DNA of 64,000 nt from Actinomycetes bacterium (lineage in GTDB: Bacteria; Actinomycetota; Thermoleophilia; BMS3ABIN01). The DNA is taken from assembly GCA_021787475.1 (NCBI GenBank), contig JAJYLW010000002.1, forward strand, positions 56,249 to 120,248, written 5' to 3'. The notes beneath the pieces are model-generated. The model was not told where the DNA came from and searched no databases. It was given only the letters and a program-made list of their open reading frames with translations. The position numbers and the translations under genes were made by a program. Of this stretch, positions 19,104 to 48,151 are shown piece by piece; the stretch's first letter is position 1, and each line of letters starts with the position of its first letter.

Positions 19104-19925
19104 TTAATGCTTGCTCCTCTCAGGTTCAAGCGAACCACCGGGCCAAGGTATCATGTTTCCGCTGCCGGGCCGCACCGCCCCGGCTAGCGCCTTTTCGACG
19201 AGCTTCTTGGCGCAGCCAACAGCATCCACAGGCTTCCTTCCCTCTGCCAGCAAGCATGTCAGCGCCGCCGAAAAAAAGCAGCCGGAGCCATGAAATTCCC
19301 TGCCGCCACCCTGCCGGGCGCCAGGAAAGATTTCCGGCCCGCTATCTCCAAGGAAGACATCAACGGGCGGTCCCCGGAAATGACCACCGGTGATGCACAC
19401 GGCTCTGGCTCCCCAACTTGCCAGCCGCCGCGCCGCTTCGACGGCTTCGGTTTCTGTCCTGATCCGCAACCCGGTCAACGTTTCCGCCTCATCCAGGTTC
19501 GGCGTAATCACTTCGGCAAGCGGAAGCAAATGCTTCTGTATCGCGCGGGCAACTTTGCGGCCGCCCAGATCAAACCCGCCCGTGCTTTTTAAGACCGGAT
19601 CAACGACCAGCCACCCTGCCTTCCTGTTTGAAACCGCTTCCGCAACCGCCTCCACTGTTTCGGCAGCCGCCAGCATGCCTGTCTTTACTGCCGCAGGGGT
19701 AACATCATCGAGCAAAACGTCAAGCTGGTCGCGCACCGGCGCTGCGCCCAGCGGATGGATTGCTTTTACTTCAAGTGTGTTTTGTGATGTGATGGCTGTT
19801 ATCACACCCAGGCCATAAAATCCCAGCCAGTTAAACACGCGCAAGTCGGCCACTACTCCGGCTCCACCCGAGGGATCGAATCCGGCGACCGAAAGAACCG
19901 CAGGCATGCCGGACAACTCAGCCAT
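19104..19925 (-). CDS. thiD: Hydroxymethylpyrimidine/phosphomethylpyrimidine kinase
   Basis: PfkB-family motifs LSVAGFDPSGGAGV...AITSQNT. The start was set at the ATG with an 8-nt overlap onto thiL, since the longer ORF (ending 20093) is an unlikely N-terminal extension. Confidence 0.8.
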   Translation of the reverse strand: MAELSGMPAVLSVAGFDPSGGAGVVADLRVFNWLGFYGLGVITAITSQNTLEVKAIHPLGAAPVRDQLDVLLDDVTPAAVKTGMLAAAETVEAVAEAVSNRKAGWLVVDPVLKSTGGFDLGGRKVARAIQKHLLPLAEVITPNLDEAETLTGLRIRTETEAVEAARRLASWGARAVCITGGHFRGPPVDVFLGDSGPEIFPGARQGGGREFHGSGCFFSAALTCLLAEGRKPVDAVGCAKKLVEKALAGAVRPGSGNMIPWPGGSLEPERSKH

Positions 19926-20919
19926 TGCCGCCGAAGTGATCAAACCCGAGGACTTCGACAGCGCGCTCGGTTCCGTCCGCGTCCACGGTAAAAATACTCG
20001 CTGCCGGCGTAATTTCGCCGATCTCGACGACTGGCACTCCCGCGGAGCGCGCAATTTCCCCGGCGACGCCGTTGCTTTTTTCCCGGTCGGCAATGATCAG
20101 AAGCTCGTAATCTTCACCTCCGCGCAAGGCCAGCTCCTTTGCATTGAGGCCGTGTTGCCCGGCCGCCAGCTTCAGTTGCGGGTGGACAGGCAGCTTCTTC
20201 ATTTCTATTCTTGCGCCGGCGCCGCTTTGCATGCAGATATGGCGCAGATCACTTGCCAGCCCGTCGCTGATATCGGTCATGGCTGAGGCACCCAGCTTCC
20301 GCGCCACCTCCCCTGCTGCAAGCCTCGCCTCGGGAGTCCGGAAAGCGCGGATCAATTCCGGGAACCGATCCGTTTCTTTCTCATTTTTAAGCAGCCAAAG
20401 GCCCGCGGCGGCGCTCCCCAAATAACCCGTTACCAAAATCCTGTCTCCGGCCTTTGCCCCAGACCTCAGCACCGCCATCCCCGCCGGTACAGAGCCACAA
20501 GCCGAGATGCCGACCATTAGCGGCCCGGGCGAGCGCGCGGTGTTACCGCCAATAACCGATATCCGCGCCGCGGATGCGAAAGCTGCAATGCCCTGACAAA
20601 TCTCATCAATGTAATCAACGGGGGTTTCCCGCGGGCAGGCCAGGGAAACAATTGCATAAAGAGGAGCGGCCCCCATGGCCGCCAGATCACTTAAGTTTAC
20701 AGCCAGGCTCTTTCGGCCCAGGTCTGCCGGCGTCAGCCATTCCTTCCGGAAATGGACCCCTTCCAGCAAGAAATCAGTCGTTAGAACCTCATTGCCAACA
20801 GAAGGAACGGTTACGGCGGCATCGTCTCCAATTCCGACCAGGACCCCGGTAGACGCCGGCGCAAAAACCTGGCGCATCCTTTCAAGCAGGGCCGCTTCGC
20901 CCAGTTCGCCGACTAGCAA
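19918..20919 (-). CDS. thiL: Thiamine-monophosphate kinase
   Basis: AIR-synthase-related fold with the motif VLVGIGDDAAV...EGVHF. Confidence 0.8.
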   Translation of the reverse strand: MLVGELGEAALLERMRQVFAPASTGVLVGIGDDAAVTVPSVGNEVLTTDFLLEGVHFRKEWLTPADLGRKSLAVNLSDLAAMGAAPLYAIVSLACPRETPVDYIDEICQGIAAFASAARISVIGGNTARSPGPLMVGISACGSVPAGMAVLRSGAKAGDRILVTGYLGSAAAGLWLLKNEKETDRFPELIRAFRTPEARLAAGEVARKLGASAMTDISDGLASDLRHICMQSGAGARIEMKKLPVHPQLKLAAGQHGLNAKELALRGGEDYELLIIADREKSNGVAGEIARSAGVPVVEIGEITPAASIFTVDADGTERAVEVLGFDHFGGNG

Positions 20920-22223
20920 CCTGAAATTTCCCCGGCCTTGATTCCCAGATGTTCAGAAACAATCTTCATGGCGCAAAGCTCGCCGCACATGCTGCAACCG
21001 GGAACATCGGCGCTCCGGCGGCCGTTGTAAATTGCGCCCGCAGTGACTGGATCAATCGAGAGGTTAATCTGCTTTTGCCAGTCAAGTGATTTTCGAGCGG
21101 CGGCCATCCGCACATCCCAATCAAGGGCGCCCGAAACCCCTTTGGCAATGTCAGCGGCATGGGCAGCGATCCGGGAAGCGATAACGCCAAGCCGGACGTC
21201 CTCAGCCTTGGGCAATCCCAGGTGCTCCGATGGCGTCACATAACAAAGATAATCTGCCCCGGCGGCACCGGCGAGCGCGCCGCCAATTGCCGCGGTGATG
21301 TGGTCATACCCTGGGGCGACGTCTGTAACCAGGGGGCCGAGAACATAAAAAGGCGCTCCCTCGGCAAGCTTTTTCGCCATCTGGACATTAGCCTCAATCT
21401 CGCCCAGCGGCACGTGACCCGGGCCTTCGATCATAGCCTGGACGCCAGCTTCGCGCGCCTGCCGGGCCAGATTCCCCAGCGTCACTAGCTCGGCAAACTG
21501 GGCTCTGTCGCTCGCGTCCGCCAGGCAGCCCGGGCGGAGCCCGTCGCCCAAGCTGACGGTCACATCAAAGCGCGCCAGGATATCAAGAAGAAGATCAAAA
21601 TCCTCATAGAAGGGATTTTCCCGGTCATGATGAACCATCCAGGCAATCATGAAAGCGCCGCCGCGGCTGACGACATCCATTATCCGACCCTCCGCCTCCA
21701 GCTGCTCCAATGCCGACCGCGTCAAACCGGCATGAATCGTCATGAAATCAACGCCGTCGCCAGCCTGGCTTTCCACAACTGAGAGCAGATCGTCCCTCGT
21801 CATTGAAACAATGCTTCCCGAGCGATCACGCGCCAGCGATGCCGCTTCGTAGATGGGAACGGTGCCGAATGGCATGCTGGTGGCGGCAAGCAGCCGTCGC
21901 CGTAAAAAAGCAACGCCGCCACCGCTGGAGAGATCCATGACCGTGTCGGCGCCCGCACCTGCCGCCGCCGCAAGCTTTTCCAGCTCAGCCTCTTCCGAAA
22001 AAAACTCGCTGGAAGCGCCGATATTTGCGTTTACCTTCGTCCTCAGCCCGGCGCCAATCCCGGTGGCGCGCACATGCCTGCCGCAGTTCCCTGCCGGGAT
22101 GACTACCTTACCCGCCAGGACTCTCTCCGCCAGCTCACTGGCGGTGGCGGACTCCGCCTGAGCCACTTCCGCCAGCGCCGGCGTAGTGACGCCGCCTGCC
22201 AGCAGCTTGAGCAGAGTTGTCAT
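20913..22223 (-). CDS. thiC: Phosphomethylpyrimidine synthase
   Basis: 436 aa with the radical-SAM-like C-terminal CGELCAMK cluster motif characteristic of ThiC. Confidence 0.85.
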   Translation of the reverse strand: MTTLLKLLAGGVTTPALAEVAQAESATASELAERVLAGKVVIPAGNCGRHVRATGIGAGLRTKVNANIGASSEFFSEEAELEKLAAAAGAGADTVMDLSSGGGVAFLRRRLLAATSMPFGTVPIYEAASLARDRSGSIVSMTRDDLLSVVESQAGDGVDFMTIHAGLTRSALEQLEAEGRIMDVVSRGGAFMIAWMVHHDRENPFYEDFDLLLDILARFDVTVSLGDGLRPGCLADASDRAQFAELVTLGNLARQAREAGVQAMIEGPGHVPLGEIEANVQMAKKLAEGAPFYVLGPLVTDVAPGYDHITAAIGGALAGAAGADYLCYVTPSEHLGLPKAEDVRLGVIASRIAAHAADIAKGVSGALDWDVRMAAARKSLDWQKQINLSIDPVTAGAIYNGRRSADVPGCSMCGELCAMKIVSEHLGIKAGEISGC

Positions 22224-22954
22224 CTGCTCCCTCCGGCCGCGGCTCTTGACCCGCTTCGAGCAGGCGGACGCCGCCGGGCGAGGTCCAGAGCCCGGCGCAG
22301 CTCTCTCGTCGCGGCTACCATATCCTCAGCCATGGCGACCGCCGAAACCACCGCTACGCCGTCGGCGCCAGCAGTGATGCATTGATCCAGGTTGCCGGCA
22401 TTTATCCCCCCAATCGCGATCACCGGTATCCCCGCGAGCGCTTTGATTTTGCTGATTCGCCCCGGCCCAACGGGAGGTTTGTCCGGCTTGGTGGCCGTGT
22501 TAAAAACCGGCCCGGCGCCAATATAAACCGCACCTTCCAGCTCTGCTTTTCTCACCTCGTCTAGCTTCGCTGCGGATTTTCCCACGATCTTTCCCCGCCC
22601 GAGCATCCGGATCGCCGCGGTTACAGACAGGTCATCCGGGCCCACGTGAAGCCCCTCAGCCCTTGAAGCCATTGCTACGCCAACGTGATCGTTTATTATC
22701 AAGGGAATGCCGGCCGCCTGGGTCATTTTATGTATATCTCGCGCTATTTTTAGCGCCTCGCCCATGCTGCGCCGCTTGATCCTCAGCTGAATTGCGCTGG
22801 CTCCACCCGCAATGGCGGCTGTGGCCACGTCGATGTGGTCCCTGCCGAGCTCCGGAACCGAACTGGTAATGACGTATAATCCAAAGTCCAAGATATTCCC
22901 CCTGCGACAGCCGGTTTTTAGCAACCGGCGAACAATTCTGCATGCTTGCGGCAA
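22220..22954 (-). CDS. thiE: Thiamine-phosphate synthase
   Basis: TIM-barrel motifs LYVIT, IQLRIK and GIPLIINDHV. The exact start is uncertain because the ORF overlaps the upstream gene. Confidence 0.75.
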   Translation of the reverse strand: MPQACRIVRRLLKTGCRRGNILDFGLYVITSSVPELGRDHIDVATAAIAGGASAIQLRIKRRSMGEALKIARDIHKMTQAAGIPLIINDHVGVAMASRAEGLHVGPDDLSVTAAIRMLGRGKIVGKSAAKLDEVRKAELEGAVYIGAGPVFNTATKPDKPPVGPGRISKIKALAGIPVIAIGGINAGNLDQCITAGADGVAVVSAVAMAEDMVAATRELRRALDLARRRPPARSGSRAAAGGSR

Positions 22955-23730
22955 AACTGCGCTTCACCTGTCTGCGCCCGGATCAACTCCTCCTGTCGAT
23001 GTGCGTTAAAGAGCCGGCATTCCGGACTGCCGCAAAAAGGCTCACCAGTCATACGATACGCCAGCGCCTGCAATGTCAAACCTGCCGCAACCTCCGTCAG
23101 TCTCGGGTCGTCTTCCAGCAGGAAATCGCCGGTAAAAGACCGGGCCAGCTCCGGATTGCCAATTTCCGAGAGGCCAATGACCTGCGCCGTGCTGCGAGCG
23201 ATGTAGTAACCCGCCGGCCGCGCCGGAGCCTCAACGACGCCGCTGGTGGAGACAACCGCCGGCGCGCCCAGAATCACAGACCTCGTATGATATCGTTTGT
23301 CGGCTTCATCCAGACTTCCAATTAGCTGATTTGTAAATATGATGTTTACCGAGTCAAGACCCGACTCTGCAGCCGGCAGCAACTGCCGGTAAATCTCCAG
23401 GATGAGGCCGGCGTCGTAAAGCAAGCCAAAGACGCTGCTGGCGCGGTTTTTGAGCCTGGCAAGCTCGTAGCTGACTTCACCAGGCAGCGGCCTCCAGCCA
23501 GGATCGGCGGCCGCATTTAAATCCCTGACTTTGGCCCGCGCAAACGCCTCAGCCAGGGTCTGCCAGTCCCGCCGGCCGCAGCGAGCATCGAGCGCGCTTT
23601 CCAGCAGCGGCCCTCGCAGGTGCACGCGGACATGCGGGAGGCCGCTGCGGACAAAAACGGCAAGTCTGTCAAAATCAATCGCTGCGCATCTTGGCTCTGG
23701 ATAGATAAATACATCGACTATCTCAACCAT
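22918..23730 (-). CDS. Uncharacterised protein with a C-terminal C-x4-C ... C-x9-C motif, embedded in the thi operon
   Basis: Start at ATG 23730, with an AGGAG ribosome-binding site 11 nt upstream. No recognisable family motif was found. Its cysteine spacing is loosely reminiscent of the archaemetzincin CxxPxC box. Confidence 0.5.
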   Translation of the reverse strand: MVEIVDVFIYPEPRCAAIDFDRLAVFVRSGLPHVRVHLRGPLLESALDARCGRRDWQTLAEAFARAKVRDLNAAADPGWRPLPGEVSYELARLKNRASSVFGLLYDAGLILEIYRQLLPAAESGLDSVNIIFTNQLIGSLDEADKRYHTRSVILGAPAVVSTSGVVEAPARPAGYYIARSTAQVIGLSEIGNPELARSFTGDFLLEDDPRLTEVAAGLTLQALAYRMTGEPFCGSPECRLFNAHRQEELIRAQTGEAQFCRKHAELFAGC

Positions 23731-23752: not shown

Positions 23753-24553
23753 TTATTTTGCCGCGGCCGCCCTTTCCGCCAGTTTGGCGATGGCGATCTC
23801 GGCGGCCCGTTTTCCCGAAAGAAGCATCCCGCCAAAGGTGGGGCCCATTCGCGGCAGGCCGTAAGCGGTTGAAACCGCCATCCCGGTAATAATCAGGCCC
23901 GGCACGAACTCTCCAGTATGCTCGAGGATCAAGTCCTCGGACCGCTCCACCCACATGGCGCCAAACCCAACCGTCTCAGCCATTCCCCGCTGCTCAAGTT
24001 TTGACACGACGCAGGCGTCATGGCCGGTGGAATCAATTATCAGATCGGCTTCTATGGCAACAGGATCAACGCAGGTAATCTCGCGTGGCAGAGAGTTGAT
24101 CGGCGTCCAGTTAATGACAACGCCGGCGACGCGGTTGCCTTCTCTGATGACAACATCCTCAAAAATCGTCATATTGGCAAACTTTACGCCGGCGTCGCAT
24201 GCCGCTGCAATCAACTTGGAGCAGGCATGAGGACCATCAGCGACAAAAAGGCCGGGCTGCGCTTCCTCGAAAGGCACCTCCAGCTCTTCCAGAACCGCCT
24301 GCGCCGGCGCCCGCAGCGTCACCTTATTCATCAAATAGCCGCCGATCCAGAAACCGCCGCCGATGTAGTTGTTCCTTTCGACGATCAGGGTTTTCAGTCC
24401 GTTGGCGGCCAGATCACGGCCGGCCATCAACCCGCTGGGCCCGCCGCCAACGATAATAACGTCGCTTTTGGCATACTCTTCGAACTGCCTCATAAAGCTG
24501 CCGACGATTGCCTTTGTGACATCCATTTCATCGATTGGGTGAAAAACCGCCAT
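23753..24553 (-). CDS. thi4: Thiazole synthase, Thi4 family
   Basis: FAD/NAD dinucleotide-binding motif [12 protein letters not shown] and the Thi4-family core. The start was set at the ATG preceded by AGGAAG. The longer GTG-initiated ORF overlaps the riboswitch. Confidence 0.8.
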
Positions 24554-24599
24554 GCTGCTTCCTTTCGTCCGGTATACAATTGATAAAAAAGCCGCGCCA

Positions 24600-24722
<123 letters not shown>

Positions 24723-24737
24723 GTATGTTTCAGTCGG

Positions 24738-24765
24738 ATTATATCATGCCGCAGAAGCGGGGCAA
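24738..24765 (-). promoter_or_regulatory. Putative sigma-70-type promoter of the thi operon
   Basis: Minus-sense TTGCCC, a 16-nt spacer, then TATAAT, about 15 nt upstream of the riboswitch. Confidence 0.45.
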
Positions 24766-24796: not shown

Positions 24797-24997
24797 TTAA
24801 CCAACGAAGACGCTGTCTGCGGTCGTTTTTTTCGCCTTGACGTCAACGGCAACCCCCTGCCCTTCATTCTGCCAAATATCTAGCGAATCAGCAACAAGGG
24901 ACTGCGGATCTTCAAACTCCTCGCCGCAGATTTCACAGTATCCCCACTGATTGACCGACCCTGCGGAAAGACAGACGTCACAATCATACCTGTCCAT
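24797..24997 (-). CDS. Small zinc-ribbon protein (66 aa)
   Basis: Contains CDVC...CEIC. The internal ATG is preceded by GGGAGGG 6 nt upstream and is preferred over the longer ORF. Confidence 0.45.
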   Translation of the reverse strand: MDRYDCDVCLSAGSVNQWGYCEICGEEFEDPQSLVADSLDIWQNEGQGVAVDVKAKKTTADSVFVG

Positions 24998-45641: not shown

Positions 45642-45686
45642 GCACCATTATTCTTTTCTGATTATCCGAGTGAAAATGGTGATCGG
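45642..45686. repeat. Intergenic repeat, type B, copy 2
   Basis: CAAGCCCCTCGCACCATT...CCGA-GTGAAAATGGTGA-TCGG. The stem carries a compensatory change (CCGA/TCGG) relative to copies 1 and 3 (CTGA/TCAG). Confidence 0.55.
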
Positions 45687-45697
45687 TATTTCTTTTC

Positions 45698-47188
45698 TTA
45701 CGGATTGGTCGCGGTTATAATTCCACCGGCGGCCAGTGTGCTCCCCCGATAAAACACCGCCGACTGACCCGGGGCAATGCCGTACGCCGGCACTGAAAGG
45801 TCAGCCTCCCATTTCCCGTTGCCGGTCCGCACCTGCGCTTCCACAGCCGGTGAATTGTACCTCATTTGCAGCAGCAGCCGCTCCTTCGCCTCGACGCCGG
45901 CAAATGAATTGATGCCCGAGACTTTGATGCTTCGCACCGCCAGGTGTTTGCGCGGGCCCGCCACGACAAGATTCTTCTCCGGCAAGGTTTTTATTACATA
46001 CATCGCCTCGCGGCGGCCGCCGCCGCCAAGGCCTCGCCTTTGGCCAACCGTATAATTGTGGTAACCGTCATGGACGCCGATCTTGCCGCCGCTTAAATCA
46101 ACAATGTCCCCCGGGCCCGGCGCCTGCCTTTCTCCAAGGCTGGATGTGATGAAACTGCGGTAATCGCCGCCGGGGATGAAGCAAATGTCCTGGCTCTCGG
46201 GACGTCCACCGGCCTGCAGGCGGGCGCTTTGGGCCAGCAAGCGGACTGCCGGCTTTGACATTTCTCCCAAGGGAAAGCTTAACTTCTCCAGAAGCCCGGG
46301 CTTTACCGCCCAGAGCATGTAGGACTGATCCTTGTCACGATCAACGCCGCGCGCCAGCAACGGTGCGCCTTTTCTCCTGACAATGCGGACATAGTGGCCC
46401 GTCGCCACTTTCGCGGCGCCGAGCCTGGCGGCCAGCCTTACCAGGGCGGGAAACCGGAGGCGGCCGTTGCAGCGTACGCACGGATTCGGCGTCATGCCGG
46501 CAAGGTAACTGCGGCAGAAATCGTTGATTACCTCTTCGAAAAAAGGGCGGCTGTAATCGATGGTCAGATGCGGCAAGCCAAGACTGTGGCAGGTTTCGCG
46601 GGCATCGAGGACCGCGCCGGCAGAACAGCAGCTTCTTCCGGCATCGTCTCCATCGTTTCCGCCCGGGTCATCCAGCAGTCTCATTGTCAACCCGATAACA
46701 TCACGGCCTGCCCGCTGCTCAAGCAGGCAGGCAACCGAACTGTCCACGCCGCCGCTCATGGCGACAAGCACGGTTTTCTTCCCGGCGCCAGAAGCGACCG
46801 GAAATTTTTCCCGCCGGAACGCATCTTCGAAAGCGCGGTGCAGCGCTTCGATGGCAAAAGCCGCAGATATATTTATTCCCTTTGATAAAGAGGCCGATTC
46901 CGGCCTGCCGAGCCTCTCCGTTAGAGCCTCAACCGGCAGGGCGGCCGCCTGGCGCCACTCCATACCCTTGGTCATCGTCGTCAGAAGGCTGCCGGCGGCA
47001 ATTGCGGCGCCTGAGCCGGACGCCATAAACGTCGCCTGCTCGACGGCCTGCCTCCTGAACTTAAGAAAGATCCTGAGAGAGGCGCCGCAATTGTCACTGC
47101 CTGCCTGTCCACAGCCATCTGCCCCGGCAAGCCGCCCGGCGTTTTGGGGATTCTGAAAATGATCAAAAAGGAGAGCATCCATGGCCAT
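45698..47188 (-). CDS. mnmA: tRNA-specific 2-thiouridylase MnmA with an N-terminal IscU/NifU-like domain
   Basis: PP-loop SGGVDSS and the catalytic Cys region in the C-terminal 360 aa. The N-terminal roughly 130 aa aligns to IscU (FQNPQNAG...DNCGASLRIFLKF...MASGSGAAIAAGSL) but retains only the first of the three cluster cysteines. Confidence 0.8.
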   Translation of the reverse strand: MAMDALLFDHFQNPQNAGRLAGADGCGQAGSDNCGASLRIFLKFRRQAVEQATFMASGSGAAIAAGSLLTTMTKGMEWRQAAALPVEALTERLGRPESASLSKGINISAAFAIEALHRAFEDAFRREKFPVASGAGKKTVLVAMSGGVDSSVACLLEQRAGRDVIGLTMRLLDDPGGNDGDDAGRSCCSAGAVLDARETCHSLGLPHLTIDYSRPFFEEVINDFCRSYLAGMTPNPCVRCNGRLRFPALVRLAARLGAAKVATGHYVRIVRRKGAPLLARGVDRDKDQSYMLWAVKPGLLEKLSFPLGEMSKPAVRLLAQSARLQAGGRPESQDICFIPGGDYRSFITSSLGERQAPGPGDIVDLSGGKIGVHDGYHNYTVGQRRGLGGGGRREAMYVIKTLPEKNLVVAGPRKHLAVRSIKVSGINSFAGVEAKERLLLQMRYNSPAVEAQVRTGNGKWEADLSVPAYGIAPGQSAVFYRGSTLAAGGIITATNP

Positions 47189-47888: not shown

Positions 47889-48151
47889 CTAAGCCACGCC
47901 TCCAAAATAAAGCTCCACCCTGCCGTGTCCGCCCATTTATTGAACCTGCTCCAGCAGGTGGGTGCCCGCTCCCCAGCTACCCTCAGATAGCGGGAGAAGA
48001 CAAAGCTCCCGTACACAATATGTTGGCTCAATAAAGTTGCAGATCACGCACAAGGTCGAGCAAGACAATACTATCACACGCCCTTATTCTTCGGCAACAG
48101 GAAAACAAAACCTTCAAAAACAATGCCGGCCTTCCTGCGCCCGGATCCCGG

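Follow-up and report, generated by a model that had tools for sequence, protein, structure and literature searches.

Cys-type Thi4 is regarded as being among the most expensive of enzymes, with one whole protein consumed per thiazole made, and the Hanson laboratory has raised the question of whether prokaryotes truly pay that price. Oliveira-Filho et al. (bioRxiv 10.1101/2025.09.23.678117; ACS Omega 2026, PMC13325395) reported that suicide Thi4 genes have DUF6775 as their commonest neighbour, in two-thirds of more than 400 genomes. The AF3 (AlphaFold 3) model of DUF6775 presented there resembles the structures 3LMC and 2X7M, with HEXXH missing and a 3Cys-1His site present; in 3LMC, the closest structure, the 3Cys-1His site is modelled with Fe (PMC13325395). 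A metallochaperone-like role was proposed and the function left open. In the case of catalytic Thi4s, the clustered metal-binding protein is another one, TRASH (PMC13325395). Here we describe a DUF6775 gene located between thi4 and thiE in a 64,000-nucleotide stretch of DNA (hereafter the window) from a member of the Actinomycetota (Thermoleophilia; assembly GCA_021787475.1, contig JAJYLW010000002.1), and compare this locus with those of other genomes.

The gene of the window is an ordinary member of DUF6775, and earlier work has linked this family to Thi4. The same work described the pairing, the fold and the Cys3His site, all of which are reproduced independently here. The window copy agrees with the published DUF6775 (PMC13325395) in its full-length hidden Markov model match, its length, its Cys3His motif and its place directly after a Cys-type thi4, but it has A216 and L218 in place of Lys and Tyr and stands in a full thiamin operon instead of a sulfur-relay cluster. 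His-type loci were not tested in that study, nor were adjacencies to bioB, PP-loop genes or cinA reported. What our analysis adds is a His-type negative control, a residue census that includes the lack of a free Cys outside the metal site, the description of two mutually exclusive genomic contexts, a riboswitch census, and recurrent bioB, PP-loop and cinA neighbours.

The open reading frame at positions 22918–23730, which the original prediction had placed within a thiamin operon under a thiamin pyrophosphate (TPP) riboswitch, is real. Its product comprises 270 rather than 271 residues, codon 271 being the stop. It had been described as an uncharacterised protein, whereas a profile check identifies it as a full-length member of the named family DUF6775/DUF7001, which is itself uncharacterised and thus not the well-characterised unrelated family that would have spoken against a role in the pathway. 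The Pfam match to DUF6775 (PF20565) scores 245.8 bits against a cut-off of 27 (E = 6.5e-73), with residues 6–267 covering profile positions 4–256 of 259, and the overlapping model DUF7001 (PF22529) also matches with 223 bits. At E ≤ 1, the Pfam scan returned these two models alone and no Peptidase_M54, Nudix, HIT, COG1058 or metallophosphoesterase; NCBIfam holds no model for the protein and, at E ≤ 1, gave nothing relevant to a pyrophosphatase. Sequence searches against the PDB, whether with the single protein or with a 38-sequence profile, yielded nothing meaningful (best E 0.3–0.5, to CcbZ and shikimate kinase). The size of the family depends on the query: at 90% identity, the window protein retrieved 291 clusters, an archaeal member 2,574 and a member from candidate division NPL-UPA2 2,371, and an exhaustive profile search gave 575 clusters at 50% identity. 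Every one of the approximately 500 relatives listed is a single-domain protein of about 230–350 residues. Pfam describes DUF6775 as a 'probable metallopeptidase family', and the NCBI and Pfam names both call it a putative or probable metallopeptidase, a label that seems misleading in the light of our results.

The central observation is that DUF6775 pairs with Thi4 of the Cys type and not with Thi4 of the His type. Cys161 of the window Thi4 is matched in the alignment by the equivalent Cys of Arabidopsis THI1 (PDB 1RP0), whereas the same position is occupied by His in the archaeal Thi4 chains 4Y4N, 4Y4M and 6HK1 and by Met in 7RK0. In Haloferax volcanii Thi4, the motif RELTCVDP contains Cys165, and the exchange C165A abolishes thiamin synthesis (PMC4215014). 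These alignments and the match to RELTCVDP identify the window Thi4 as a Cys-type enzyme, i.e. of the 'suicide', single-turnover type. A scan of one genome per species yielded 412 DUF6775 relatives, of which the best 80 loci were fetched (L001–L080). The original prediction had proposed co-occurrence with thi4 as a check, and the association proved very strong: thi4 is present in 72 of the 80 loci, and in 67 of these 72 it immediately precedes DUF6775 on the same strand, with gaps of -1 to 278 nucleotides. The active-site Cys, embedded in a near-invariant motif, was found in all 71 scorable Thi4s from DUF6775 loci. Conversely, none of 37 metagenome loci with a His-type thi4 carried DUF6775 beside it in the sequence fetched, which extended at least 900 nucleotides downstream in 25 of the 37. 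The thi4–DUF6775 pair spans Actinomycetota/Thermoleophilia, Chloroflexota, Nitrospirota, Omnitrophota, Hadarchaeota, Thermoplasmatota and others, and in archaeal examples the two genes overlap by 4–23 nucleotides; overlapping stop and start codons occur among these archaeal relatives. The named hosts belong to uncultured lineages, for example Dehalococcoidia, Hadarchaeota and Thermoplasmatota. These lineages are presumably mostly anaerobes, which would fit Fe(II)/sulfide chemistry.

The Thi4 of the pair is unusually conserved, with 62–95% identity across Bacteria and Archaea compared with 33–68% for DUF6775. Correlated divergence was considered as evidence for a specific interaction and rejected: identities to the window proteins are correlated between Thi4 and DUF6775 with r = 0.86, but between Thi4 and ThiC they reach r = 0.90, which points to shared history and not to specific interaction. 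In the sulfur-metabolism cluster of one of the 37 His-type loci (L105:2677–5415), a Cys-type and a His-type thi4 occur together with an Rrf2-like regulator, cysK, a COG1900 gene, a NIL-ferredoxin gene and nifS, and no DUF6775 is present. This Cys-type thi4 without DUF6775 agrees with the published neighbour frequency of about two-thirds.

Residue conservation was assessed in an alignment of 367 DUF6775 relatives. The peptides quoted in the original prediction, FCGSPECRLF and FCRKHAELFAGC, both occur in the translation, but the 'Cys4' motif derived from them (Cx4C...Cx9C) paired the wrong residues: it joined C260 to the terminal C270, where most relatives have Leu, Phe or Ile. What is conserved instead is the metal motif Cx4C-x19–24-CxxH, with this spacing in 364 of the 367 sequences; C233 and C238 are present in all 367, C260 in 366 and H263 in 365. 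In archaemetzincins the counterpart of this Cys3His site is the structural Cys site, in which a Cys stands where DUF6775 has the final His (PMC13325395). HEXXH is absent from the window protein and occurs in a single relative, and the Met of the Met-turn (CX4CXM) is replaced by Leu240 in the window protein (C238-R-L240); HEXXH, the third catalytic zinc ligand and the Met-turn Met are missing family-wide. We consider DUF6775 to be a probable descendant of archaemetzincin-type zinc peptidases, with a predicted metzincin fold from which the catalytic zinc site has gone. The archaemetzincins (Peptidase M54; PDB 2X7M, 3ZVS, 3LMC) share this predicted fold but carry HEXXHXXGXXH/D, without which DUF6775 possesses neither catalytic zinc nor a general-base Glu; they have a Met-turn Met and a Cys4 site where DUF6775 has Leu240 and His263 as fourth ligand. 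DUF6775 also exceeds them by about 100 residues and has helical inserts near positions 40–100 and 170–205, and the sequence identity amounts to just 14–19%. The kinship is invisible to sequence profiles and to Foldseek, and the family profile misses 2X7M, 3LMC and 3ZVS.

Twenty positions are conserved at 97% or more (E89, Y105, H148, P157, S161, G164, P169, A170, Y176, D208, G217, Q221, F232, C233, C238, N242, Q246, Q253, C260 and H263), and the window protein has all of them. Judging from the order of secondary-structure elements, the invariant polar residues outside the metal site (E89, Y105, H148, S161, Y176, D208, Q221, N242 and Q246) would sit on the strands and the helix around what is the peptidase cleft in metzincins. 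In 115 of the 367 relatives the three metal-site cysteines are the only ones, so that a further conserved Cys, on which a persulfide could be carried, is lacking in the family. The unusual residues A216 and L218 of the window copy sit on the old active-site helix (window positions 23067–23084, codons 216–221); its closest relatives share Leu218 but keep Lys216.

Based on these findings, we tentatively propose, with a probability of about 30%, that DUF6775 acts on the Thi4 protein, and not on an intermediate of the pathway, as a metal-holding or metal-delivering, metallochaperone-like accessory. The observed basis comprises the identity of the protein, its fold, the loss of HEXXH, the Cys3His motif, its membership of the operon and its exclusive pairing with Cys-type Thi4; the metallochaperone-like role is suggested by the retained Cys3His site, the Fe in the 3LMC site, the metal-pump neighbours and the analogy with TRASH. 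In such a scheme, (i) DUF6775 is made together with the Cys-type Thi4, both being under TPP-riboswitch control in the window organism; (ii) a metal ion, Fe(II) or Zn, would sit in its Cys3His site; (iii) the protein would dock on Thi4 via its remodelled cleft; and (iv) it would deliver to Thi4, or retain there, the loosely bound iron that the Cys-type enzyme needs for sulfur transfer, with the metal presumably passing from DUF6775 to Thi4. HypA of [NiFe]-hydrogenase and the TRASH proteins of catalytic Thi4s offer a parallel in that they too are small metal-binding proteins with conserved Cys/His encoded beside a metal-dependent enzyme, as predicted for DUF6775, but their fold is unrelated and the metal site of DUF6775 looks saturated and structural.

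Several points weigh against this proposal. A Cys3His site whose metal is fully coordinated and which derives from a structural zinc site is unlikely to be a transferable metal store, and the approximately 20 invariant residues outside the metal site resemble the active site of an enzyme more than the surface of a chaperone. Two near-invariant cleft residues are missing from the window copy, with A216 where 91% of the family has Lys and L218 where 94% has Tyr. No Thi4–DUF6775 fusion exists among the approximately 500 relatives listed. Of 86 loci, 8 have P-type ATPases close to DUF6775, and CutA1, VIT1 and a Cus/Czc-type pump occur at individual loci, but the estimate of this metal-pump enrichment is rough and has no matched control. 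Finally, inductively coupled plasma mass spectrometry detected no metal in recombinant DUF6775, an uninformative test since the protein was obtained from inclusion bodies only, every construct tried having been insoluble in E. coli (PMC13325395).

The thiamin operon of the window has the order riboswitch, thi4, DUF6775 gene, thiE, thiC, thiL, thiD, as the original prediction had read it and as Rfam, Pfam and gene calls bear out. Its elements are as follows, in the direction of transcription:

24738–24765, minus strand: promoter-like site 5' of the riboswitch, TTGCCC and TG-TATAAT with a 16-nucleotide spacer, 10 of 12 consensus positions matched (a consensus match only)

24612–24730, minus strand: TPP riboswitch aptamer, Rfam RF00059, 67.5 bits against a gathering score of 54.3, E = 4.3e-11, full model

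24579–24618, minus strand: terminator-like hairpin with U-run, 3' of the aptamer, 14-bp stem, -22.4 kcal/mol, z = -2.96

23753–24553, minus strand: thi4, Cys-type, Pfam Thi4 1.3e-69, TIGR00292 249 bits, Cys161 in REITCVDP

22918–23730, minus strand: DUF6775/DUF7001 gene (270 residues), ATG at 23730, TAA at 22920–22918, Shine-Dalgarno sequence AGGAGA

22942–23034, minus strand: codons of the Cys3His site (C233, C238, C260, H263, with L240 for the Met-turn Met), from the alignment of 367 relatives

22220–22891, minus strand: thiE, TTG start at 22891, Shine-Dalgarno sequence AGGGGG, TMP-TENI 5e-55, gene call in L081

20913–22223, minus strand: thiC, ThiC_Rad_SAM

19918–20919, minus strand: thiL, AIRS and AIRS_C

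19104–19853, minus strand: thiD, Phos_pyr_kin, coordinates carried over from L081

The hairpin and U-run, which a simple terminator scan did not list, are likely the expression platform of the riboswitch. The DUF6775 gene is tightly packed between thi4 and thiE, but translational coupling in the literal sense, as had been claimed, is not borne out by the spacing: 22 nucleotides separate the thi4 stop from the DUF6775 start and 26 nucleotides the DUF6775 stop from the TTG of thiE, and each gene has its own Shine-Dalgarno sequence. The stated absence of thiS/F/G/H/O stands for ThiS and ThiF across the 64 kb, where the sole ThiS-like reading frame ending in GG looks spurious; the window likewise contains no homologue of ThiF, NifS or ThiI. 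The identical DUF6775 protein occurs in the identical gene order in the metagenome-assembled genome GCA_027331575.1. Just 5' of the thi promoter lies a small Cys-rich open reading frame (CxxC...CxxC; window 24797–24997, minus strand; 66 residues in the matching NCBI record), which is kept in 7 of 81 clustered loci. Apart from mnmA and a nifU-like gene (45677–47170, minus strand), no sulfur-trafficking gene was detected in the window; these two are situated about 22 kb from the thi operon and are adjoined by a 6S RNA (47908–48064, minus strand; Rfam 75 bits).

Across 81 loci (L001–L080 and the window), the thi4–DUF6775 pair occurs in two settings. Thiamin genes (thiC, thiE, thiL, thiD) surround it in 33 loci and sulfur-trafficking genes in 28, the latter set consisting of NifS, ThiF/MoeB, ThiS-like, CysK, the COG1900 homocysteine-biosynthesis sulfurtransferase with its NIL-ferredoxin, ThiI and MnmA. 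Both settings coincide in one locus and neither is found in 21, so that the thiamin and sulfur-relay settings are almost mutually exclusive. In 48 of the 81 loci, neither thiE nor any other thiamin gene lies within 7 kb of the pair. About 17 Actinomycetota/Thermoleophilia loci keep DUF6775 between thi4 and thiE. Of 38 further loci tested, 15 resemble the window in having a TPP riboswitch at the head of the unit, among them a Dehalococcoidales locus (L068) in which thi4 and DUF6775 are the sole recognised thi genes; this census indicates that DUF6775 is part of the thiamin regulon in bacteria. A locus from Candidatus Hakubella (L079:8925–9252) carries two tandem matches to the group II intron model D1-D4-4, several kb 3' of the thi4–DUF6775 pair.

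Where thi4 is not adjacent, DUF6775 keeps every near-invariant residue, with the exception of two in the protein of L070 (which has His106 and Phe147). In that single case (L070:643–3566), fdhD, DUF6775 and bioB lie on one strand, with a gap of 0 nucleotides between DUF6775 and bioB (BioB, 404 bits), and no thi4 is present on the 10.6-kb contig. In several phyla, the gene directly 3' of DUF6775 encodes a Cys-rich ThiI-like PP-loop ATPase/NFACT-R_2 protein of about 331–335 residues:

L049:5330–6331, PP-loop/NFACT-R_2 gene 3' of DUF6775

L052:1483–2478, PP-loop/NFACT-R_2 gene 3' of DUF6775

L053:6082–7080, PP-loop/NFACT-R_2 gene 3' of DUF6775

L059:1873–2880, PP-loop/NFACT-R_2 gene 3' of DUF6775

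L125:3221–4216, PP-loop/NFACT-R_2 gene 3' of DUF6775

In L059 and L125, a P-type ATPase gene lies upstream of DUF6775 and no thi4 is adjacent. DUF6775 is further found in a NifS/NifU/ThiF/ThiS cluster in which thi4 is not adjacent (L034), and NifU is located nearby in 7 loci.

The sulfur-relay settings bear on a different role, in which DUF6775 would be a reactivation enzyme that resets Cys-type Thi4 after its single turnover. Sulfur from sulfide or persulfide would be re-added to the dehydroalanine left at Cys161, or delivered in such a way that the Cys is never consumed, and the 'suicide' enzyme would become a multi-turnover one. We regard this as possible but doubtful. It would account for the exclusive pairing with Cys-type Thi4 and the lack of DUF6775 at His-type loci, for the presence of NifS, ThiF/MoeB, ThiS-like, CysK, COG1900, ThiI and MnmA genes around the pair in the 28 loci, and for the company of other sulfur-insertion enzymes where thi4 is lacking, namely bioB in L070 and the ThiI-like PP-loop proteins in L052, L053, L059 and L125. 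An enzyme that grips a peptide loop would fit the large number of invariant polar residues in the former cleft, and the repair by persulfide of a dehydroalanine in LarE is a precedent (cited in PMC13325395). However, the 115 relatives whose only cysteines are those of the metal site offer no free conserved Cys for a persulfide, and the partners ThiS, ThiF, NifS and ThiI were not found in the operon or the surrounding 64 kb of the window. Moreover, with one locus combining the thiamin and sulfur-relay contexts, the relay neighbours could serve Thi4 and not DUF6775, and repair of a prokaryotic Cys-type Thi4 is without experimental evidence. The more specific form of this idea, that of a dedicated reactivase which restores or spares the sacrificed Cys with sulfide or persulfide, possibly on bound iron, and which may also serve BioB and PP-loop thiolases, appears rather doubtful as well. 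A genuine peptidase, for instance one degrading spent Thi4 to recycle amino acids, is highly improbable: the predicted metzincin fold and the NCBI and Pfam names would favour it, and the invariant Ser161, His148 and Asp208 could in principle form a non-metal hydrolytic triad, but the loss of the catalytic zinc site throughout the family indicates that DUF6775 is not a peptidase, Peptidase_M54 gave no match even at E ≤ 1, and damaged proteins are normally cleared by general proteases.

The original prediction had put forward DUF6775 as the missing hydrolase that converts ADP-thiazole to AMP and the thiazole phosphate used by ThiE; in a variant, it would pry the tightly bound product off spent Thi4. 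The premise is correct, as the hydrolase is 'yet to be identified' (PMC4215014). The order thi4–DUF6775–thiE in a riboswitch operon, kept in the Actinomycetota/Thermoleophilia loci mentioned above, is consistent with such a role, and the conserved residues R146, H148, R150, E89, D208, Y105 and Y176 could bind a nucleotide diphosphate; Arg146, His148 and Arg150 were considered as a putative anion site. Nevertheless, we consider the hydrolase role unlikely. His-type Thi4s give the same ADP-thiazole, yet none of their 37 loci has DUF6775; more than half of the DUF6775 loci are free of nearby thiamin genes; and DUF6775 also stands beside bioB and fdhD or a PP-loop enzyme where thi4 is lacking. Two Cys-type Thi4s, selected on clustering with thiS and thiF and possibly neighboured by DUF6775 at their native loci, complement an E. 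coli thiG mutant on their own (PMC13325395). The predicted fold is that of a metzincin with a dead active site, and none of the signatures of Nudix, HIT or metallophosphoesterase enzymes turned up in the Pfam scan at E ≤ 1. Pyrophosphatases of the Nudix and COG1058 (CinA N-domain) types would perform the proposed cleavage of an ADP-X diphosphate, but DUF6775 has no sequence or fold similarity to either.

A better candidate for this step is encoded by a separate gene, cinA (COG1058 and PncC nicotinamide mononucleotide deamidase domains), which follows DUF6775 directly 3' on the same strand in 10 Chloroflexi/Dehalococcoidia loci (L021, L025, L027, L028, L029, L031, L035, L040, L041 and L056; e.g. 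L028:5073–6305), with gaps of 30–60 nucleotides where the called reading frames do not overlap. A TPP riboswitch is located upstream of thiC in the five cinA loci scanned, and in several Chloroflexi loci cinA lies inside the riboswitch-controlled unit. The COG1058 domain of CinA is a proven ADP-ribose pyrophosphatase (PMC3680494, PMC4246079). This activity and the place of cinA in the riboswitch unit make it a more natural candidate than DUF6775 for ADP-thiazole hydrolysis, and it is plausible that CinA may act as both ADP-thiazole hydrolase and recycler of the NAD by-products of Thi4. The observation that started this analysis is real but was mis-described in detail, and among the live options its new hydrolase hypothesis has the least support; the evidence points towards the alternative named with it, Thi4 sulfur/iron handling.

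In summary, the role of DUF6775 is now better constrained by its exclusivity for Cys-type Thi4, its neighbours, the cysteine census and the cinA alternative, and it is still a worthwhile question. As the most constant companion of Cys-type Thi4 across Bacteria and Archaea, DUF6775 provides the most direct handle on the cost question raised by this enzyme. If DUF6775 were a reactivase, the prokaryotic 'suicide' thiazole synthases would turn over many times.

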